Below the pieces are notes generated by a model, which saw nothing but the letters and a program-made list of their open reading frames with translations, was not told the DNA's origin and made no database searches. Shown here piece after piece: positions 6,648 through 34,129 of a stretch of DNA of 45,714 nucleotides (position 1 is the first letter of the stretch; each line of letters starts with the position of its first letter). Made by a program: the position numbers and the translations under genes. Origin of the DNA: a virus (lineage: Duplodnaviria; Heunggongvirae; Uroviricota; Caudoviricetes); IMG/VR virus record IMGVR_UViG_2718218126_000004; one strand, given 5' to 3'.

Positions 6648-7247
6648 TCAGAATTTATAACCGACACCCACGATGAAACCGTCAGTGCGCCAGTCACCAC
6701 TGCCGGAGCCTTCATAAGCAATATCAATGGCCACGGATTCGGTCGGGTTAAACTGCACGCCAGCCCCCCACGCCAGAGACGTGTTGCTGTGGCGACCGTC
6801 ATCACTTCCGGTCAGCACATCGTGCTTTTTCCCCTTGTTGTCAGTTACGCGAAGATAATCCCCGGAGAAAGTCGACACACGGCTGTAAGCTACACCCGCC
6901 ATCGCATACGCGCTGAACCATTCATTCACGCGCACAGACGGCCCCGCCATTACGCTGAACCAGCGGTTACGAACGGAATCTTCATGCCAGCGGGTATCGC
7001 TGTAACGGGTCAGCTGGCGATTCTTGTCTCCTGCATAGCTGAATGACGTCACCAGCCCCAGTGTGTCCGTAAACTCATAACGGTATTTCACGTTAATCCC
7101 GTTCAGATTATCGCTGCCGGGGACGTTCGTCGAGGCATGAAGATACCCCGCGCTCAGCGTGGACTGATGTTCAGATGCCCATGCAGGCGCACCGGATACG
7201 GCCAGACAAATGGCTGCGGACAAAATGGCGGCATAAAGTTTACGCAT
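6648..7247 (-). CDS. lom: Outer membrane protein Lom (Ail/Lom family), full-length copy
   Basis: 199-aa ORF with signal peptide and C-terminal AYEGSGSGDWRTDGFIVGVGYKF as in lambda Lom; sits between J and stf as in lambda. Confidence 0.9.
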   Translation of the reverse strand: MRKLYAAILSAAICLAVSGAPAWASEHQSTLSAGYLHASTNVPGSDNLNGINVKYRYEFTDTLGLVTSFSYAGDKNRQLTRYSDTRWHEDSVRNRWFSVMAGPSVRVNEWFSAYAMAGVAYSRVSTFSGDYLRVTDNKGKKHDVLTGSDDGRHSNTSLAWGAGVQFNPTESVAIDIAYEGSGSGDWRTDGFIVGVGYKF

Positions 7248-7270
7248 AATTACCTCTCGCTTTTCTGCAA

Positions 7271-7296
7271 TAAAAAAGGCACCATTTCTGGTGCCC
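7271..7296 (-). terminator. Putative rho-independent terminator downstream of the J copy, upstream of lom
   Basis: Hairpin aaggcacc-atttct-ggtgccctt with adjacent A-run on the plus strand (T-run on the minus strand). Confidence 0.4.
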
Positions 7297-7316
7297 TTAT
7301 ATGGGTTATAACAATT

Positions 7317-9895
7317 TCAACGAATACTGATGCCGGAAGCGGCTTTTTTGGTCACAATCACCGTACAGTCGGTGATATTGCCTGCCCCCTGATTGCCTTT
7401 CTGGAAAATCTTAAACTCCAGAGTGACGCTTCCCCTGCCACTCGGCATATCAATAACTGCACTGTAACTACCGGGAATGGCCCCTTTAGTTTCTCTGGAT
7501 GCGATTAATACGCCGTTTTTGCGAACTTCAAAACCATAACCCGTGTATCGCGTGCCTCCTGGGTTATTTCCGCTCCCCGGATCGTCATACGCTATACCGT
7601 TAAAAATAATGGGCGGAATAATAATCTGGCGGTCAAAGTTATGATCATCGCTGATGGTGACTGTAACCGTACCATTTGGTGTTTCCGTGTTACCCCACGT
7701 ACCGACTTTTTTCGGGAAGGCTTTTGATACAGCTTTAACGAAATCTCCTCTGACCTGGGTCGCCTCCAGCATGCCCTTAATCGTACAGTTCTGGTTAATC
7801 GTGACATTGTTGAGCGTTCCTGAGTTCGCATTCACACTGCCACTGATATCCGCATTTTTCGCCGTCAGTCTCCCGTCTGATGTCAGGGAAAATGCCGGAG
7901 GATTACCGCCGCTGGTAATGGTGGGGGCCGTCAGGCGTTTCAGGAACACTTCATTCATGAATATCTGATCGCCCTGACCAACAAACATCGGCTTTGTGTT
8001 GCCATTCGCAGGATTAATCATCGCAATCCTGTCTGCTGCCAGCAGCACCTGACTCTGCATGCCGTCAGGGGTGTTCTCAATACCGGCACCGATACCCGCA
8101 ATATAAAGGCGTCCGTCCTGCATCTGCTGCAGCTTCACTGCCCACATGCTGTTCAGGTTATTATTTGTATCAACCTGAACCTTCTGTATCTGCTGGATCG
8201 CTGCACTCTGGTCTTCCAGTTTCTTATTGACGGTCTGTGTTATTTCATTGCTGACATCCGTTATGGACGTCCTGATTTCAGTCAGGTCAGGCGCAAGCTG
8301 ACCGTTATCAATCTGCGTCCACAGCTCCTGAGCCAGATGGGTTTTCCCTATCTCGCCTTTGAAAAAATCCAGATAGCCTGATGCATCATCACTCGGCTGA
8401 CCGACAGCCTCCACGAATGCCGATTTGCCAACGGTGTTCACACTGCGAACGTAAAAATAATAATCATGGCCCGGTTTGATATTGATACTGGCGGCTATCC
8501 AGTACAGTGCCGTACCAAGATAACGCGCGCTGGTTTCAACCTGCCTGATATCCGCAATCCGTTTTTCCGAGAACCAGAACTCAAACTGTACCGTCGGGTC
8601 ATAAACCGCAAGATGCGGCGTGGCGGTTATCTGAAAATAGCCCGGCGTCAGCTCAATCCGCGACGGCGCTGCCGGTGCGGCAATCCGGAACGATACCGAC
8701 GCCGGATCGCCCTGCTGCCCCCACGCATTTACCGCCCGGACTGTCAGCCTGTAGTTCCCCAGCGCCAGTTGCCTGAAGCGGTATGTGGTTTCCGTCGTCC
8801 GGGCCGTGCTGACCAGCCGCTCACTGCCGTCATCCGCTGTTACGGTCAGACGGAGCAGGAAGCTCACGCCCTTCACCACCTTCGGCGTGTCCCAGCGGGC
8901 CAGCACCTGGTATTCCCCGCTGTCTGCGGTGACTTCTGCGGTCAGGTGCTGCACCGCTGGCGGCGTGACACCATTTACCGTGCCGCTCTGGTCGCCGTCA
9001 AAGTGCGCCCCGTTATCCACGATGGCCTCTTTTTCCGGTACATGCTGCACGGCGGTGATGGCATACGTGCCGTCGTCGTTCTCACGGATACTCACGCAGC
9101 GGAACAGGCGCTGGCGCAACGTCGGCAGCTTCAGCCCCCATACGCTGTATTCAGCAACGCCGTCAGGAACACGGCTCACTTTTACCTTCACGCCGTCGGT
9201 GACGGACTGGACCTCCACGCTGACCGGATTGCCACTTCCGTCAACCAGGCTTATCAGCGTGGTACCGGAGGATGGCAGCGTGATTTCACGGTCGAGCGTC
9301 AGCGTCCGGGTCTGGCTGTTCACCGCCAGCACGCGCCCGCCGGTGCTGATACCCGCATAGTCATCATCGCAGATTTCAATGACATCCCCCGGTACATGGC
9401 GAAGCCCTTCCGCACCCACGCTGAAGTCCACGGTCTGCGTTTCCAGCAGTTCCGTTTTAATCAGCCACAGCCCGGCGCGGTGCGCCTGCCCCCGACTGGT
9501 ACAGCCAAAGGCATCCATCTTCGTGACGTTACGACCGTAACGGGCAATGGCCTGCGTGTCCTCCACAAGCTCTGTCGCCGTCTCCCAGCCGTTATCCGGG
9601 TCAATCCAGTTCACCTCAACGGCATTATGGCGGTCCTTCAGGGCGCTGAAGCTGTAGCGGAACGGCGCGCCATCATCCGGCATCACCACATTACTGCGGT
9701 TATAGGTCCACACCTTATCTGATGGTCGGTCCTGCACGAACGTCAGCGTCTGCCCGTTCCATACCGGCATACAGCGCATCGCAGAGCAGAAATCACTGAG
9801 CACATCCCACGCCTTGCGCTGTGTGGTCAGGTACGCATTACAGGTGATGCGCGGCTCCGTGCCGCCAAAACCGTCCGGCACCGACTGATCGCAAT
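7317..9895 (-). pseudogene. 5'-truncated duplicate of tail tip gene J (lacks roughly the first 306 codons)
   Basis: ORF 7317-9881 translates to the C-terminal ~854 aa of J; its upstream end fuses abruptly at 9895/9896 to sequence from inside lom; no plausible start or RBS. Confidence 0.8.
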
Positions 9896-10254
9896 GCTAC
9901 ACCCGCCATCGCATACGCGCTGAACCATTCATTCACGCGCACAGACGGCCCCGCCATTACGCTGAACCAGCGGTTACGAACGGAATCTTCATGCCAGCGG
10001 GTATCGCTGTAACGGGTCAGCTGGCGATTCTTGTCTCCTGCATAGCTGAATGACGTCACCAGCCCCAGTGTGTCCGTAAACTCATAACGGTATTTCACGT
10101 TAATCCCGTTCAGATTATCGCTGCCGGGGACGTTCGTCGAGGCATGAAGATACCCCGCGCTCAGCGTGGACTGATGTTCAGATGCCCATGCAGGCGCACC
10201 GGATACGGCCAGACAAATGGCTGCGGACAAAATGGCGGCATAAAGTTTACGCAT
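9896..10254 (-). pseudogene. 3'-truncated duplicate of lom (first ~119 codons) fused out of frame to the J fragment
   Basis: ORF 9838-10254 matches full lom for ~120 aa (MRKLYAAILSAAICLAVSGAPAWASEHQ...YAMAGVA) then diverges at the junction. Confidence 0.8.
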
Positions 10255-10277
10255 AATTACCTCTCGCTTTTCTGCAA

Positions 10278-10303
10278 TAAAAAAGGCACCATTTCTGGTG
10301 CCC
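10278..10303 (-). terminator. Duplicate copy of the J-lom intergenic hairpin terminator
   Basis: Same sequence as 7271-7296 at +3007 bp. Confidence 0.4.
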
Positions 10304-10323
10304 TTATATGGGTTATAACAATT

Positions 10324-13300
10324 TCAACGAATACTGATGCCGGAAGCGGCTTTTTTGGTCACAATCACCGTACAGTCGGTGATATTGCCTGCCCCCTGAT
10401 TGCCTTTCTGGAAAATCTTAAACTCCAGAGTGACGCTTCCCCTGCCACTCGGCATATCAATAACTGCACTGTAACTACCGGGAATGGCCCCTTTAGTTTC
10501 TCTGGATGCGATTAATACGCCGTTTTTGCGAACTTCAAAACCATAACCCGTGTATCGCGTGCCTCCTGGGTTATTTCCGCTCCCCGGATCGTCATACGCT
10601 ATACCGTTAAAAATAATGGGCGGAATAATAATCTGGCGGTCAAAGTTATGATCATCGCTGATGGTGACTGTAACCGTACCATTTGGTGTTTCCGTGTTAC
10701 CCCACGTACCGACTTTTTTCGGGAAGGCTTTTGATACAGCTTTAACGAAATCTCCTCTGACCTGGGTCGCCTCCAGCATGCCCTTAATCGTACAGTTCTG
10801 GTTAATCGTGACATTGTTGAGCGTTCCTGAGTTCGCATTCACACTGCCACTGATATCCGCATTTTTCGCCGTCAGTCTCCCGTCTGATGTCAGGGAAAAT
10901 GCCGGAGGATTACCGCCGCTGGTAATGGTGGGGGCCGTCAGGCGTTTCAGGAACACTTCATTCATGAATATCTGATCGCCCTGACCAACAAACATCGGCT
11001 TTGTGTTGCCATTCGCAGGATTAATCATCGCAATCCTGTCTGCTGCCAGCAGCACCTGACTCTGCATGCCGTCAGGGGTGTTCTCAATACCGGCACCGAT
11101 ACCCGCAATATAAAGGCGTCCGTCCTGCATCTGCTGCAGCTTCACTGCCCACATGCTGTTCAGGTTATTATTTGTATCAACCTGAACCTTCTGTATCTGC
11201 TGGATCGCTGCACTCTGGTCTTCCAGTTTCTTATTGACGGTCTGTGTTATTTCATTGCTGACATCCGTTATGGACGTCCTGATTTCAGTCAGGTCAGGCG
11301 CAAGCTGACCGTTATCAATCTGCGTCCACAGCTCCTGAGCCAGATGGGTTTTCCCTATCTCGCCTTTGAAAAAATCCAGATAGCCTGATGCATCATCACT
11401 CGGCTGACCGACAGCCTCCACGAATGCCGATTTGCCAACGGTGTTCACACTGCGAACGTAAAAATAATAATCATGGCCCGGTTTGATATTGATACTGGCG
11501 GCTATCCAGTACAGTGCCGTACCAAGATAACGCGCGCTGGTTTCAACCTGCCTGATATCCGCAATCCGTTTTTCCGAGAACCAGAACTCAAACTGTACCG
11601 TCGGGTCATAAACCGCAAGATGCGGCGTGGCGGTTATCTGAAAATAGCCCGGCGTCAGCTCAATCCGCGACGGCGCTGCCGGTGCGGCAATCCGGAACGA
11701 TACCGACGCCGGATCGCCCTGCTGCCCCCACGCATTTACTGCCCGGACTGTCAGCCTGTAGTTCCCCAGAGCCAGTTGTGTGAAGCGGTAAGTGGTTTCC
11801 GTCGTCCGGGCCGTGCTGACCAGCCGCTCACTGCCGTCATCCGCTGCCACGGTCAGGCGAAGCATAAAGCTCACCCCCTTCACCACCTTCGGCGTGTCCC
11901 AGCGCGCCAGCACCTGATATTCCCCGCTGTCTGCGGTGACTTCGGCAGTCAGGTGCTGCACCGCTGGCGGCGTGACACCATTTACCGTGCCGCTCTGGTC
12001 GCCGTCAAAGTGCGCCCCGTTATCCACGATGGCCTCTTTTTCCGGTACATGCTGCACGGCAGTGATGGCATACGTGCCGTCATCGTTCTCACGGATACTC
12101 ACACAGCGAAACAGGCGCTGACGCAGTGTCGGCAGCTTCAGCCCCCACACGCTGTATTCGGCTATTCCGTCAGGAACCCGGCTCACTTTCACCTTCATGC
12201 CGTCGGTGACGGACTGGACCTCCACGCTGACCGGATTGCCACTTCCGTCAGCCAGGCTTATCAGCGTGGTGCCGGAGGATGGCAGCGTGATTTCACGGTC
12301 GAGCGTCAGCGTCCGGGTCTGGCTGTTCACCGCCAGCACGCGACCACCGATGCTGATACCAGCATAGTCATCATCGCAGATTTCAATAACATCGCCCGGT
12401 ACATGGCGAAGCCCTTCTGCGCCCACACTGAAATCCACGGTCTGCGTCTCCAGCAGCTCCGTTTTAATCAGCCACAGCCCGGCGCGGTGTGCCTGCCCCC
12501 GGCAGGTACAGCCAAAGGCATCCATCTTCGTAACATTACGACCGTAACGGGCAATGGCCTGCGTATCTTCAACAAGCTCTGTCGCCGTCTCCCAGCCGTT
12601 GTTCGGGTCAATCCAGTTCACCTCAACGGCATTATGGCGGTCCTTCAGGGCGCTGAAGCTGTAGCGGAACGGCGCGCCATCATCCGGCATCACCACATTA
12701 CTGCGGTTATAGGTCCACACCTTATCCGACGGTCGGTCCTGCACGAACGTCAGCGTCTGCCCGTTCCATACCGGCATACAGCGCATCGCCGAGCAGAAAT
12801 CACTGAGCACATCCCACGCCTTGCGCTGTGTGGTCAGGTACGCATTACAGGTGATGCGCGGCTCCGTGCCGCCAAAGCCGTCCGGCACTGACTGGTCGCA
12901 GTACTGGCCGATGACATACAGCGCCCATTTGTCCACATCCGCCGCACCAAGACGTTTCCCCATGCCGTAGCGCGGATGGGTCAGCATATCCCACAGACAC
13001 CAGGCCATGTTGTTGCTGTATGCTGGCTTAAACGTTCCGTCCCAGATACCGCTGTATTGCCGCGTCTGCGGGTTATAGTTCGACGGCACCTGCAGAATGC
13101 GCCCGCGCAGATGATAATTACGGCTCACCTGCTGGCTGCCGAACTGCTCCGAATCCACCTGCACGCCGACCAGTGCCGTGTTCGGGTAGCACTGTTTCAC
13201 ATCGATGATTTCGGTGTATGACGACCAGAGCGTTTTGTTCTGCAGCTGGTCTGTGGTGCTGTCCGGCGTCATCCTGCGCATCCGTATATTGAACGGGCGC

Positions 13301-13821
13301 GGCGGCAGGTTACCCACCACCACCGAGGCCAGATACTGCGAGGTGGTTTTGCCCTTAATGGTGATGTCTTTTTCCGTCACCCAGCCACCATTACGCTGGA
13401 TCTGAACCAGCAGGCGGACTTCCGACGGATTCCGGTCCCCCTTTGAGGTGGTTTCCACCAGTGCCTGCACGCCGAAGGTAAAGCGCAGACGGTCGATGTT
13501 TGCAGACGTAATGGTGCGGGTGATCGGCGTGTCATATTTCACTTCCGTACCCAGCACCGTCTCGGAGCCGGAGGATTCAAACCCCTCCGGCGGTGTCTGC
13601 TCCTGCTCACCGGCACGGAACACCACCGTGACACCGGAGATGTTGGTATTCCCCTCAGTGTCCAGCACCGGCGTACTGTTCAGCAGCACGCTTTTTAATC
13701 CATCCACCGGACCTTCAACCGGCCCTTCGCTGATGGCATCGATCACACTCAGCAACTGCGTGGACTTCAGGTTGTCCTTCGCTTCGCGCGGGGTATGCCC
13801 CTTACTGCTTCCTTTACCCAT
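10324..13821 (-). CDS. J: Tail tip / host specificity protein J (central tail fibre)
   Basis: 1165-aa ORF starting [34 protein letters not shown], matching recalled lambda gpJ over the N-terminal portion; C-terminal receptor-binding region differs from lambda. Confidence 0.95.
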
Positions 13822-13881: not shown

Positions 13882-14553
13882 TCAGCGACCAATCACCACA
13901 ACCTGACCACCGTCCCCTTCGTCTGCCGTGCTGATCTCCTGAGAAACCACGCGAGACCCCACGCGCATTTCCCCGTACAGAACAGGCAGAACATTGCCCT
14001 GGGCAACCATGTTATCCAGTGAGGAGAAATAGGTGTTCTGCTTACCGTTATCCGTTGTCTGTGTACGGGGAGTTCTGGCTTTCGGTGCCAGCATCTGCGC
14101 CACACCACCGAGCACCATACTGGCACCGAGAGAAAACAGGATGCCGGTCATACCACCGGCCCCAATGGCTGCCCCCCATGCTGCAAGGGTGGCTCCGGCG
14201 GTAAAGAATGATCCGGCAATGGCGGCAGCCCCCAGGACAATCTGGAATACGCCACCTGACTTGGCCCCGGCGACTCTGGGAACAATATGAATCACAGCGC
14301 CATCAGGCAGAGTCTCATGTAACTGCGCCGTTAACCCGGACGTGCTGACGTCCCGCCCGGCAATCCGTACCTGATACCAGCCGTCGCTCAGTTTCTGACG
14401 AAACGCCGGGAGCTGTGTGGCCAGTGCCCGGATGGCTTCAGCCCCCGTTTTCACACGAAGGTCGATGCGGCGACCAAATCGTTGTAAATCCCCGTAAAGG
14501 CAGATGCGCGCCATGCCCGGTGACGCCAGAGGGAGTGTGTGCGTCGCTGCCAT
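13882..14553 (-). CDS. I: Tail tip assembly protein I
   Basis: 223 aa, same length as lambda gpI; overlaps K by 103 nt as in lambda; glycine-rich hydrophobic C-terminus. Confidence 0.9.
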   Translation of the reverse strand: MAATHTLPLASPGMARICLYGDLQRFGRRIDLRVKTGAEAIRALATQLPAFRQKLSDGWYQVRIAGRDVSTSGLTAQLHETLPDGAVIHIVPRVAGAKSGGVFQIVLGAAAIAGSFFTAGATLAAWGAAIGAGGMTGILFSLGASMVLGGVAQMLAPKARTPRTQTTDNGKQNTYFSSLDNMVAQGNVLPVLYGEMRVGSRVVSQEISTADEGDGGQVVVIGR

Positions 14554-15194
14554 TTGTCGGTGTACCTCTCTCGTTTGCTCAGTTGTTCAGGAATATGGTG
14601 CAGCAGCTCGCCGTCGCCGCAGTAAATTGCGGCGTGATTCGGCACCGATGAACCAAAACAGCACAGCAGCACATCGCCCGGCTGTGCCGCTGACAACGGC
14701 ACCTGATACAGCCCCGTCGCCTCCAGATTATCCAGATAGAGATTCTGGCCGTTACGCCACCAGTCATCCTCACGATGAAAATCCGGCATCTCAATCCCCG
14801 CCAGATGATAAGCATCCCGGAACAGTGTGTAACAGTCCGTCACACCGTGCTCAAAGCGCCGCCCGGTGAGATGCGGCACACAGCGGAACTTATGAATCGT
14901 CCCCCGGCAGACCAGCCACCACGGCAAATCACTCTGCACCTGCAGCCGCCGGTCGGCCTCACTCAGCCAGGGTAGACCACCGGGGTGGCTGTGGACCAGC
15001 GCCACAATCTCACCCTGTCGAACTGCCTGCAGCCAGTCTTCCGGCGACATACGGAAATACGCCTCCGGCTCACCGGAGATATTCACGCAGGGGAAATATC
15101 TTTCCCCCTCCGGCGTGCTTACCACGAAGCCGCACGACTCCGCTGGCGCACATCGCCGGGCGTGCGCCAGAATCGCTGATTCTGTCTGTGTCAT
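14451..15194 (-). CDS. K: Tail tip assembly protein K (MPN/JAMM plus NlpC/P60-like domains)
   Basis: 247-aa ORF MTQTESAILAHARRCAPAESCGFVVSTPEG...; JAMM-like motif ALVHSHPGGLPWLSEAD; as I recall, lambda K is annotated from an internal Met 48 codons downstream (about 15050). Confidence 0.85.
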   Translation of the reverse strand: MTQTESAILAHARRCAPAESCGFVVSTPEGERYFPCVNISGEPEAYFRMSPEDWLQAVRQGEIVALVHSHPGGLPWLSEADRRLQVQSDLPWWLVCRGTIHKFRCVPHLTGRRFEHGVTDCYTLFRDAYHLAGIEMPDFHREDDWWRNGQNLYLDNLEATGLYQVPLSAAQPGDVLLCCFGSSVPNHAAIYCGDGELLHHIPEQLSKRERYTDKWQRRTHSLWRHRAWRASAFTGIYNDLVAASTFV

Positions 15195-15897
15195 GGGATT
15201 TACTGCGAAAGTTTGTTATGGAAAGGAAGCCGCCAAAGTTGCCGACGTTATTGCGGAACTTACAACCGCTCAGGCATTTGCTGCATTTATCCTTCGTGAT
15301 ATCGGACGTCGGCTGGTCATATTCATCCGCGACAGCCGGACCGCTATAACCGCACTCGTCACCGCGATAGGTCCAGGTGCAGGTGTTGGCCAGCATGATA
15401 CGTCCCGGAAAAACAGCGCCATCCGTTTCCGTCGGCGTGGACAGTACAAAGGAGGCACTCACCGCGCTCAGTTCGCTGCACTGCTCAATGCGCCAGCGGC
15501 TGATCACCTCCTGCTCCGGATCGGCGTAACTGTTTCCGTTGACGAAGTTCACCGCATCCAGAAAACGGGCGTAAACCTTACGCCGGACCACCGTTCCGCC
15601 GACCAGACTCTGCATATCTTCCGCCATCCCGGTGACCATACCGTACAGGTTAGAAACCGTCAGCGTGGGGCGCGTACTGGTGCCTTTGCCATTCAGTTCA
15701 AAACCGCTCCCCTGAATGGGATACGGCTGATACTGTCGCCCCTGCCAGGTGACCGGCTCACCTTTTTCGTTCTGCTCATTACAGAAAAAATAACGTTCTC
15801 CACCGACCTCTGTCAGGTCGATTTCCCAGAGCACCACGCTGGCCGACTGCTCCGCACGGGTGCATTCATTCAGTGTTTCCTGCCGGATATCCTGCAT
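15070..15897 (-). CDS. L: Tail tip assembly protein L, with an apparent C-terminal frameshift that extends the ORF into K
   Basis: First ~227 aa match recalled lambda gpL (MQDIRQETLNECTRAEQSASVVLWEIDLTEVGGERYFF... Cys cluster CSKCLSGC); the expected stop TAA (15200-15202) is out of frame by one nucleotide, so the ORF reads 48 extra codons into K. Confidence 0.8.
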   Translation of the reverse strand: MQDIRQETLNECTRAEQSASVVLWEIDLTEVGGERYFFCNEQNEKGEPVTWQGRQYQPYPIQGSGFELNGKGTSTRPTLTVSNLYGMVTGMAEDMQSLVGGTVVRRKVYARFLDAVNFVNGNSYADPEQEVISRWRIEQCSELSAVSASFVLSTPTETDGAVFPGRIMLANTCTWTYRGDECGYSGPAVADEYDQPTSDITKDKCSKCLSGCKFRNNVGNFGGFLSITNFRSKSHDTDRISDSGARPAMCASGVVRLRGKHAGGGKIFPLREYLR

Positions 15898-33031: not shown

Positions 33032-34129
33032 ATGAAAAAATTAACAGTGGCAATTTCTGCTGTAGCTGCATCAGTACTGATGGCGATGTCTGCTCAGGCA
33101 GCTGAAATTTATAATAAAGACAGTAACAAGCTGGATCTGTACGGGAAAGTTAATGCTAAGCACTACTTCTCCTCTAATGATGCAGATGATGGTGATACTA
33201 CTTATGCCCGTCTTGGCTTCAAAGGTGAAACCCAAATCAACGATCAACTGACTGGTTTCGGTCAGTGGGAATATGAATTCAAAGGCAACCGCGCTGAATC
33301 TCAAGGTTCCTCCAAAGACAAAACCCGTCTTGCATTTGCAGGCCTGAAATTCGGTGACTACGGCTCAATCGATTACGGCCGTAACTACGGTGTAGCATAC
33401 GACATCGGTGCGTGGACTGACGTTCTGCCAGAATTCGGTGGCGATACCTGGACCCAAACAGATGTGTTCATGACTGGTCGCACCACTGGTGTTGCAACCT
33501 ATCGTAACAACGACTTCTTTGGTCTGGTTGATGGTCTGAACTTTGCTGCTCAGTACCAAGGCAAAAACGATCGTAGCGATTTCGATAACTACACCGAAGG
33601 TAACGGTGATGGCTTCGGTTTCTCTGCTACCTATGAATACGAAGGATTCGGTATCGGTGCAACTTATGCGAAATCTGATCGTACCGACACTCAAGTTAAT
33701 GCAGGGAAAGTTCTTCCTGAAGTATTTGCTTCCGGTAAAAATGCAGAAGTTTGGGCCGCAGGTCTGAAATATGACGCTAACAACATTTACCTGGCCACTA
33801 CCTATTCTGAAACCCAGAATATGACTGTATTTGCTGATCACTTCGTTGCTAATAAAGCTCAAAACTTCGAAGCTGTTGCACAATATCAGTTCGATTTCGG
33901 TCTGCGTCCGTCCGTTGCTTACCTGCAATCTAAAGGTAAGGATCTTGGAGTATGGGGCGATCAGGACTTAGTCAAATATGTTGATGTAGGTGCAACCTAT
34001 TACTTCAACAAAAATATGTCTACTTTCGTTGATTACAAAATCAACCTGCTTGACAAAAATGACTTCACTAAAGCACTCGGTGTAAGCACTGATGACATCG
34101 TTGCTGTAGGTCTGGTTTACCAGTTCTAA
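33032..34129 (+). CDS. nmpC: Outer membrane porin NmpC (OmpC/OmpF-type general porin), intact
   Basis: 365 aa with signal peptide [23 protein letters not shown], porin motifs and C-terminal VAVGLVYQF; opposite strand between Q and the lysis genes as in DLP12; uninterrupted here. Confidence 0.95.

Follow-up and report, generated by a model that had tools for sequence, protein, structure and literature searches.

Gene L of lambda encodes a well-known tail-tip protein, gpL, of 232 residues. Why, then, does the L reading frame of a lambda-like prophage run on into the next gene, K, and give a translation of 275 residues? We considered a real mutation, an error in the sequence record, a natural longer form of gpL, and a recoding site. 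The window (the whole stretch of DNA that was analysed) is 45,714 nucleotides long. The best explanation overall, to which we assign a probability of roughly 0.85, is that L of this prophage has lost one base of a TT dinucleotide in codons 227/228, and that the lesion is private. The finding is ordinary: a well-known gene carries a private lesion, or an error, of a single base, and this represents no new form of gpL. The coordinates of the relevant features are collected in Table 1.

Table 1. Features of the L-K region in the window (position 1 is the first letter of the window).
Feature	Position	Strand	Description and basis
Frameshifted tail-tip gene L	15897..15070	minus	ATG at 15897; 275-aa ORF, gpL residues 1-227 plus a 48-residue out-of-frame tail; ORF list
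Single-base deletion site	15218..15219	minus	plus strand TTATGG versus TTAATGG in relatives; coding CCATAAC versus CCATTAAC; alignments with lambda, lambda imm21 and the GPEC617 prophage
48-codon extension and new TGA stop (15072..15070)	15070..15216	minus	from 15194 down, K codons 1-42 in another frame; translation
Lambda-type L stop TAA, out of frame here	15200..15202	minus	in relatives, 4-5 nt upstream of the K ATG
Tail assembly gene K	14451..15194	minus	247 aa, Prok-JAB + NlpC/P60; ATG at 15194; Pfam
Internal K start	15048..15066	minus	GGAGG 15066..15062, ATG 15050..15048 (Met49); sequence read directly
K substitution, 5 of 6 nt	15018..15023	minus	GAAATG to GTTCGA (E58V/M59R); private; 200 nt from the L deletion

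The identity of the gene is clear. L lies between M and K in a lambda-like late operon on the minus strand (order H-M-L-K-I-J), and Pfam PF05100 (Phage_tail_L) matches its residues 29-229 with an E value of 1.4e-100 (profile positions 1-205/206). An earlier note, made from the sequence alone, had recognized a likeness to gpL over about 227 residues, and residues 1-227 are in fact 100% identical to the lambda gpL chains in the PDB (8IYK chain L, 8IYL, 8K35, 8XCG, 9E7M). The protein therefore shares with lambda gpL the HDI domain, the 4Fe-4S domain with Cys173/182/205/212, and the position of its gene between M and K. It differs in its length (275 versus 232 residues), in the replacement of the terminal NKLSQ by 48 unrelated residues (TNFRSKSHDTD...REYLR), which overlap K and come from the wrong frame of its start, and in the loss of the stop that adjoins the K start. 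The lambda ending given in that note, GGFLSINKLSQ-stop, is correct. Its placing of a 1-nt frameshift near the 3' end of L, with the lambda-equivalent TAA 698 nt from the start and hence out of frame, also holds, as does the extension of the ORF by 48 codons into K.

Alignment of the window with lambda J02459, lambda imm21 and the prophage of E. coli GPEC617 revealed that exactly one base is absent at the L-K junction. The indel that the earlier note expected against lambda is thus present. However, it had assigned the loss to an A/C-rich run (ataaacaaa to ataacaaa), whereas the alignment puts it in the TT dinucleotide of CCATTAAC, where one T is gone (on the plus strand, one A of the AA at 15218/15219). 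The part of that reading which stands is a frame-shifting deletion of one nucleotide; the proposed site and slip mechanism do not. The TT spans codons 227/228 (ATT AAC). Codon 227 changes from ATT to ATA and still encodes Ile; accordingly, residue 228 is the first to be altered.

The deletion sits in a prophage that is otherwise in good order. The window is a lambda-like prophage with 99.7% identity to its closest relative, the GPEC617 prophage (NZ_CM142807.1, 3404000-3452000). The latter adjoins a tRNA-Arg gene between fimZ and appY-ompT-envY, and its annotation follows DLP12 naming, with intD (next to that tRNA-Arg gene), quuD, essD, rrrD, and nohD. As the flanking tRNA-Arg gene falls just outside the window, the argU/DLP12 site is read from this relative, and to judge by it, the window is a prophage integrated at that site of the E. 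coli chromosome. The window proteins that match the products of these named genes are 99.7-100% identical to them. The two prophages differ by substitutions, most of which lie in mosaic patches, by one uncompensated indel, and by a 3-kb partial duplication. All 52 annotated coding sequences are full length in the window and free of stops, except L, and at least 44 have 100% protein identity. Compared with lambda, the identity is 97.8% over 18 kb, and the one further indel that bears on a frame is a base that the lambda reference lacks and the window has. A noisy assembly was considered and rejected, given a single uncompensated indel in 45.7 kb against a relative of 99.7% identity. The prophage is not generally decayed.

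Through the gene names of this relative, the window is linked to DLP12-type prophages at argU. It differs from these in that its full lambda-like head and tail genes are intact with L alone broken, and in that it carries a lom'-J' partial duplication. DLP12 of E. coli K-12 is a remnant. With complete lambda-like head and tail genes and an intact porin gene at 33032..34129, the window, a full-length lambdoid prophage of the DLP12 kind, resembles an undecayed counterpart of that remnant.

The partial tandem duplication (6889..12903, period 3007 bp) covers the 5' end of lom together with the intergenic region and 2.6 kb from the 3' end of J. As a result, a complete J (13821..10324) is followed by a shortened lom' fused to part of J (J', 9896..7320) and then by a complete lom; the J' fragment is 100% identical to residues 307-1165 of GPEC617 J. 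Over 1844 bp the copies match at 100%, and beyond that they differ by about 5%, which speaks for recombination as the origin and against an artefact of assembly. The junction of the duplication was absent from 5,426 E. coli genomes.

How widely is the deletion carried? A 44-nt probe centred on it, which cannot seed on the wild-type sequence, was run against 5,426 complete E. coli genomes and 50,697 phage records and found no match in either set. The best matches to a longer probe of 120 nt lay at 9,217 places in 4,308 of those 5,426 genomes and in 163 phage records. The best of these matches carry the extra base: the 60 E. coli and 30 phage matches listed were all 99.2% identical, with 121 bases of the record aligned to 120 of the query. 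Exact deletion patterns of 42 and 25 nt gave no match in 185,579 species-representative genomes; likewise, the 42-nt pattern had none in IMG/VR and the 25-nt pattern none in the JGI metagenomes. As a control, a wild-type 26-mer matched at least 120 IMG/VR viral contigs. At the protein level, the 275-residue L was absent among about 15 billion proteins, while the neighbouring K protein was found in the same set as an exact match (APL69338.1/WP_073520418.1). The presence of K on record without the 275-residue L suggests that L carries no protein annotation in the source record. The deletion in L is private to one record.

We consider the odds slightly better than even that the base is truly missing in the DNA, i.e., that the mutation is real. 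The strongest competing explanation, whose chances we place a little short of even, is an assembly or consensus error, in which case the strain itself carries the normal CCATTAAC and an intact L, and the base was dropped only in the record. Such an error would fit a variant that occurs in no other sequence searched and that constitutes the only frame-breaking difference in 45.7 kb, although one indel over this length also means that the assembly is not noisy. The resolution of a 3-kb tandem repeat suggests a long-read assembly, and assemblies of this type leave occasional single-base deletions. In addition, other ORFs with the same out-of-frame tail, described below, stem from error-ridden sequences. 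On the other hand, the run consists of only two bases, with no long homopolymer. A TT dinucleotide is no classic site of slippage or of homopolymer error; therefore, the sequence context favours neither origin. What further opposes a consensus error is a second private change only 200 nt away, the patch in K, which is atypical of errors of this kind.

This patch affects codons 58-59 ('AEMQGE'), a site nearly invariant in about 110 alleles. Neither IMG/VR nor the best E. coli matches contain its GTTCGA, and no ectopic template for it was found elsewhere in the window. The patch does not resemble the errors typical of a consensus. For two private events placed at random in 45.7 kb, a distance of 200 bp or less is expected only about 1% of the time. 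The proximity of the K patch and the L deletion hints at one real local mutational event.

A natural, functional longer isoform of gpL, common to a subgroup of lambdoid phages, is very unlikely. Among the 94 representatives that reach the C-terminus, 90 L homologues (35-99% identity) end 3-14 residues past the equivalent of residue 227, with a mode of 5. The 48 residues that follow residue 227 in the window are far outside this family range, and the tail is merely the 5' end of K in another frame. In favour of an isoform, an exhaustive HMMER search found four database ORFs with a similar tail (P0029, P0034, P0046, and P0075). These, however, are fragments starting at an internal Met; their frames shift at different places (FLPLTNF, FPLTNFRK, and others), and they hold further indels; none of the four has the FLSITNF junction, and their source sequences are visibly error-ridden. 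They are independent frameshifts or errors and not a family. Furthermore, a search with the tail only, among 5.8 billion proteins, returned just small ORFs in alternative frames. Real C-terminal variation, an option that the earlier note had kept, is therefore refuted: the junction occurs in no database sequence, homologues end about 5 residues past residue 227, and no family of L proteins sharing the 48-residue extension was found in other phages.

Two small proteins labelled 'partial' from other records (P0016 and P0017; one record is labelled Pseudomonas juntendi) are alternative-frame translations across a lambda-like L-K junction. Their probable origin is the spurious calling of ORFs on short contigs, or contamination with lambda DNA.

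A programmed ribosomal frameshift in L, like the G/GT site of the same operon and with normal L still made, is scarcely credible: the lambda tail operon does hold one programmed -1 frameshift, at G/T, and G and T are intact here, but the -1 shift needed would fall in TCC ATA ACA AAC, which has no in-phase X XXY YYZ slippery heptamer (direct reading of 15205-15225 gave no slippery motif), L lies in a single frame in all relatives, and the shifted arrangement is conserved nowhere among the E. coli genomes and phage records.

Taking the private one-base loss as real, what would it do to gpL? The ligands of the gpL 4Fe-4S cluster are Cys173, 182, 205, and 212 (PMC10721106), and the C-terminal domain that binds the cluster comprises residues 154-232. 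All four cysteines lie upstream of the shift and are hence kept, as residues 1-227 are identical to those of lambda. In the Ur-lambda tip, all 232 residues of gpL are ordered (PMC12617516), which argues that the last five belong to the fold or to an interface. A junk tail of 48 residues in their place would be expected to upset this ordered end of gpL within the tail tip.

The same deletion could also act on K. K is 247 residues long in 99 of 104 IMG/VR loci, and in 117 of 120 the L stop precedes the K ATG by 4-5 nt. No Shine-Dalgarno sequence stands before this ATG; its anti-Shine-Dalgarno duplex (+0.7 kcal/mol) is the weakest among 23 phage genes checked. K is alone among these 23 genes in having no Shine-Dalgarno complementarity before its ATG (15173..15194). 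The conserved spacing, together with the missing Shine-Dalgarno sequence, suggests an obligatory translational coupling of K to L. In relatives, the close stop and the start without a Shine-Dalgarno sequence form a layout of the termination-reinitiation type. In the window, the L stop is out of frame, so that translation of L passes the K start and stops 122 nt inside K. Since K has no Shine-Dalgarno sequence of its own and the L stop 5 nt before its start is lost, translation of full-length K is probably lowered. Tail assembly depends on K (PMC12617516).

Ribosomes ending at the new L stop may nevertheless restart at the internal GGAGG-ATG (Met49), which lies 19 nt past that stop and is the annotated start of the 199-residue K in reference lambda. 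The resulting N-truncated K would lack Glu19, the putative catalytic residue of the JAB domain as assigned from the AESCG motif. Against a polar effect on K, this internal Shine-Dalgarno-ATG pair might supply enough K activity.

The length annotated for K in lambda is itself affected by a one-base discrepancy. The lambda reference (J02459/NC_001416) lacks one G at about 14266 (window 15060; GGAGGC-TATTTCC), and this G is present in the window, in lambda imm21, and in GPEC617. HK629/630 and several resequenced lambda records are one base longer than the reference over this stretch, consistent with the missing G. With the extra G, K has 247 residues with JAB and NlpC/P60 domains, and its start lies 5 nt past the L stop; the reference annotates just 199 residues. 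A literature search on gpK with NlpC gave no match.

The L deletion resembles two other single-base indels, namely, the stf frameshift of laboratory lambda (PMC10721106, PMC12617516), likewise in a tail gene with intact neighbours, and the above discrepancy in K of J02459, which likewise alters an annotated product and leaves the neighbours intact. In the window, by contrast, the affected gene is L, only a single E. coli record carries the indel, and the stop beside the start of the next gene is lost as well.

Beyond annotation, the importance of the finding is small. If the record is an artefact, L is to be annotated as intact. It is improbable, in our view, that the deletion is real and the phage viable all the same, with the tail hanging from the surface-exposed Fe-S domain without blocking tip assembly and a 199-residue K made by reinitiation at Met49. 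If this were true, neither the C-terminus of gpL nor the JAB N-terminus of K would be essential for lambda tail assembly. More generally, a point lesion that inactivates a gene fits the usual path of prophage decay. Should the base be missing in the DNA, tail assembly would be expected to be defective in a prophage that is sound in all other respects. With every gene but L intact, such a prophage is probably unable to make tails, which bears on the release of infectious phage, and it would illustrate on a small scale how prophage decay begins at the DLP12 site.
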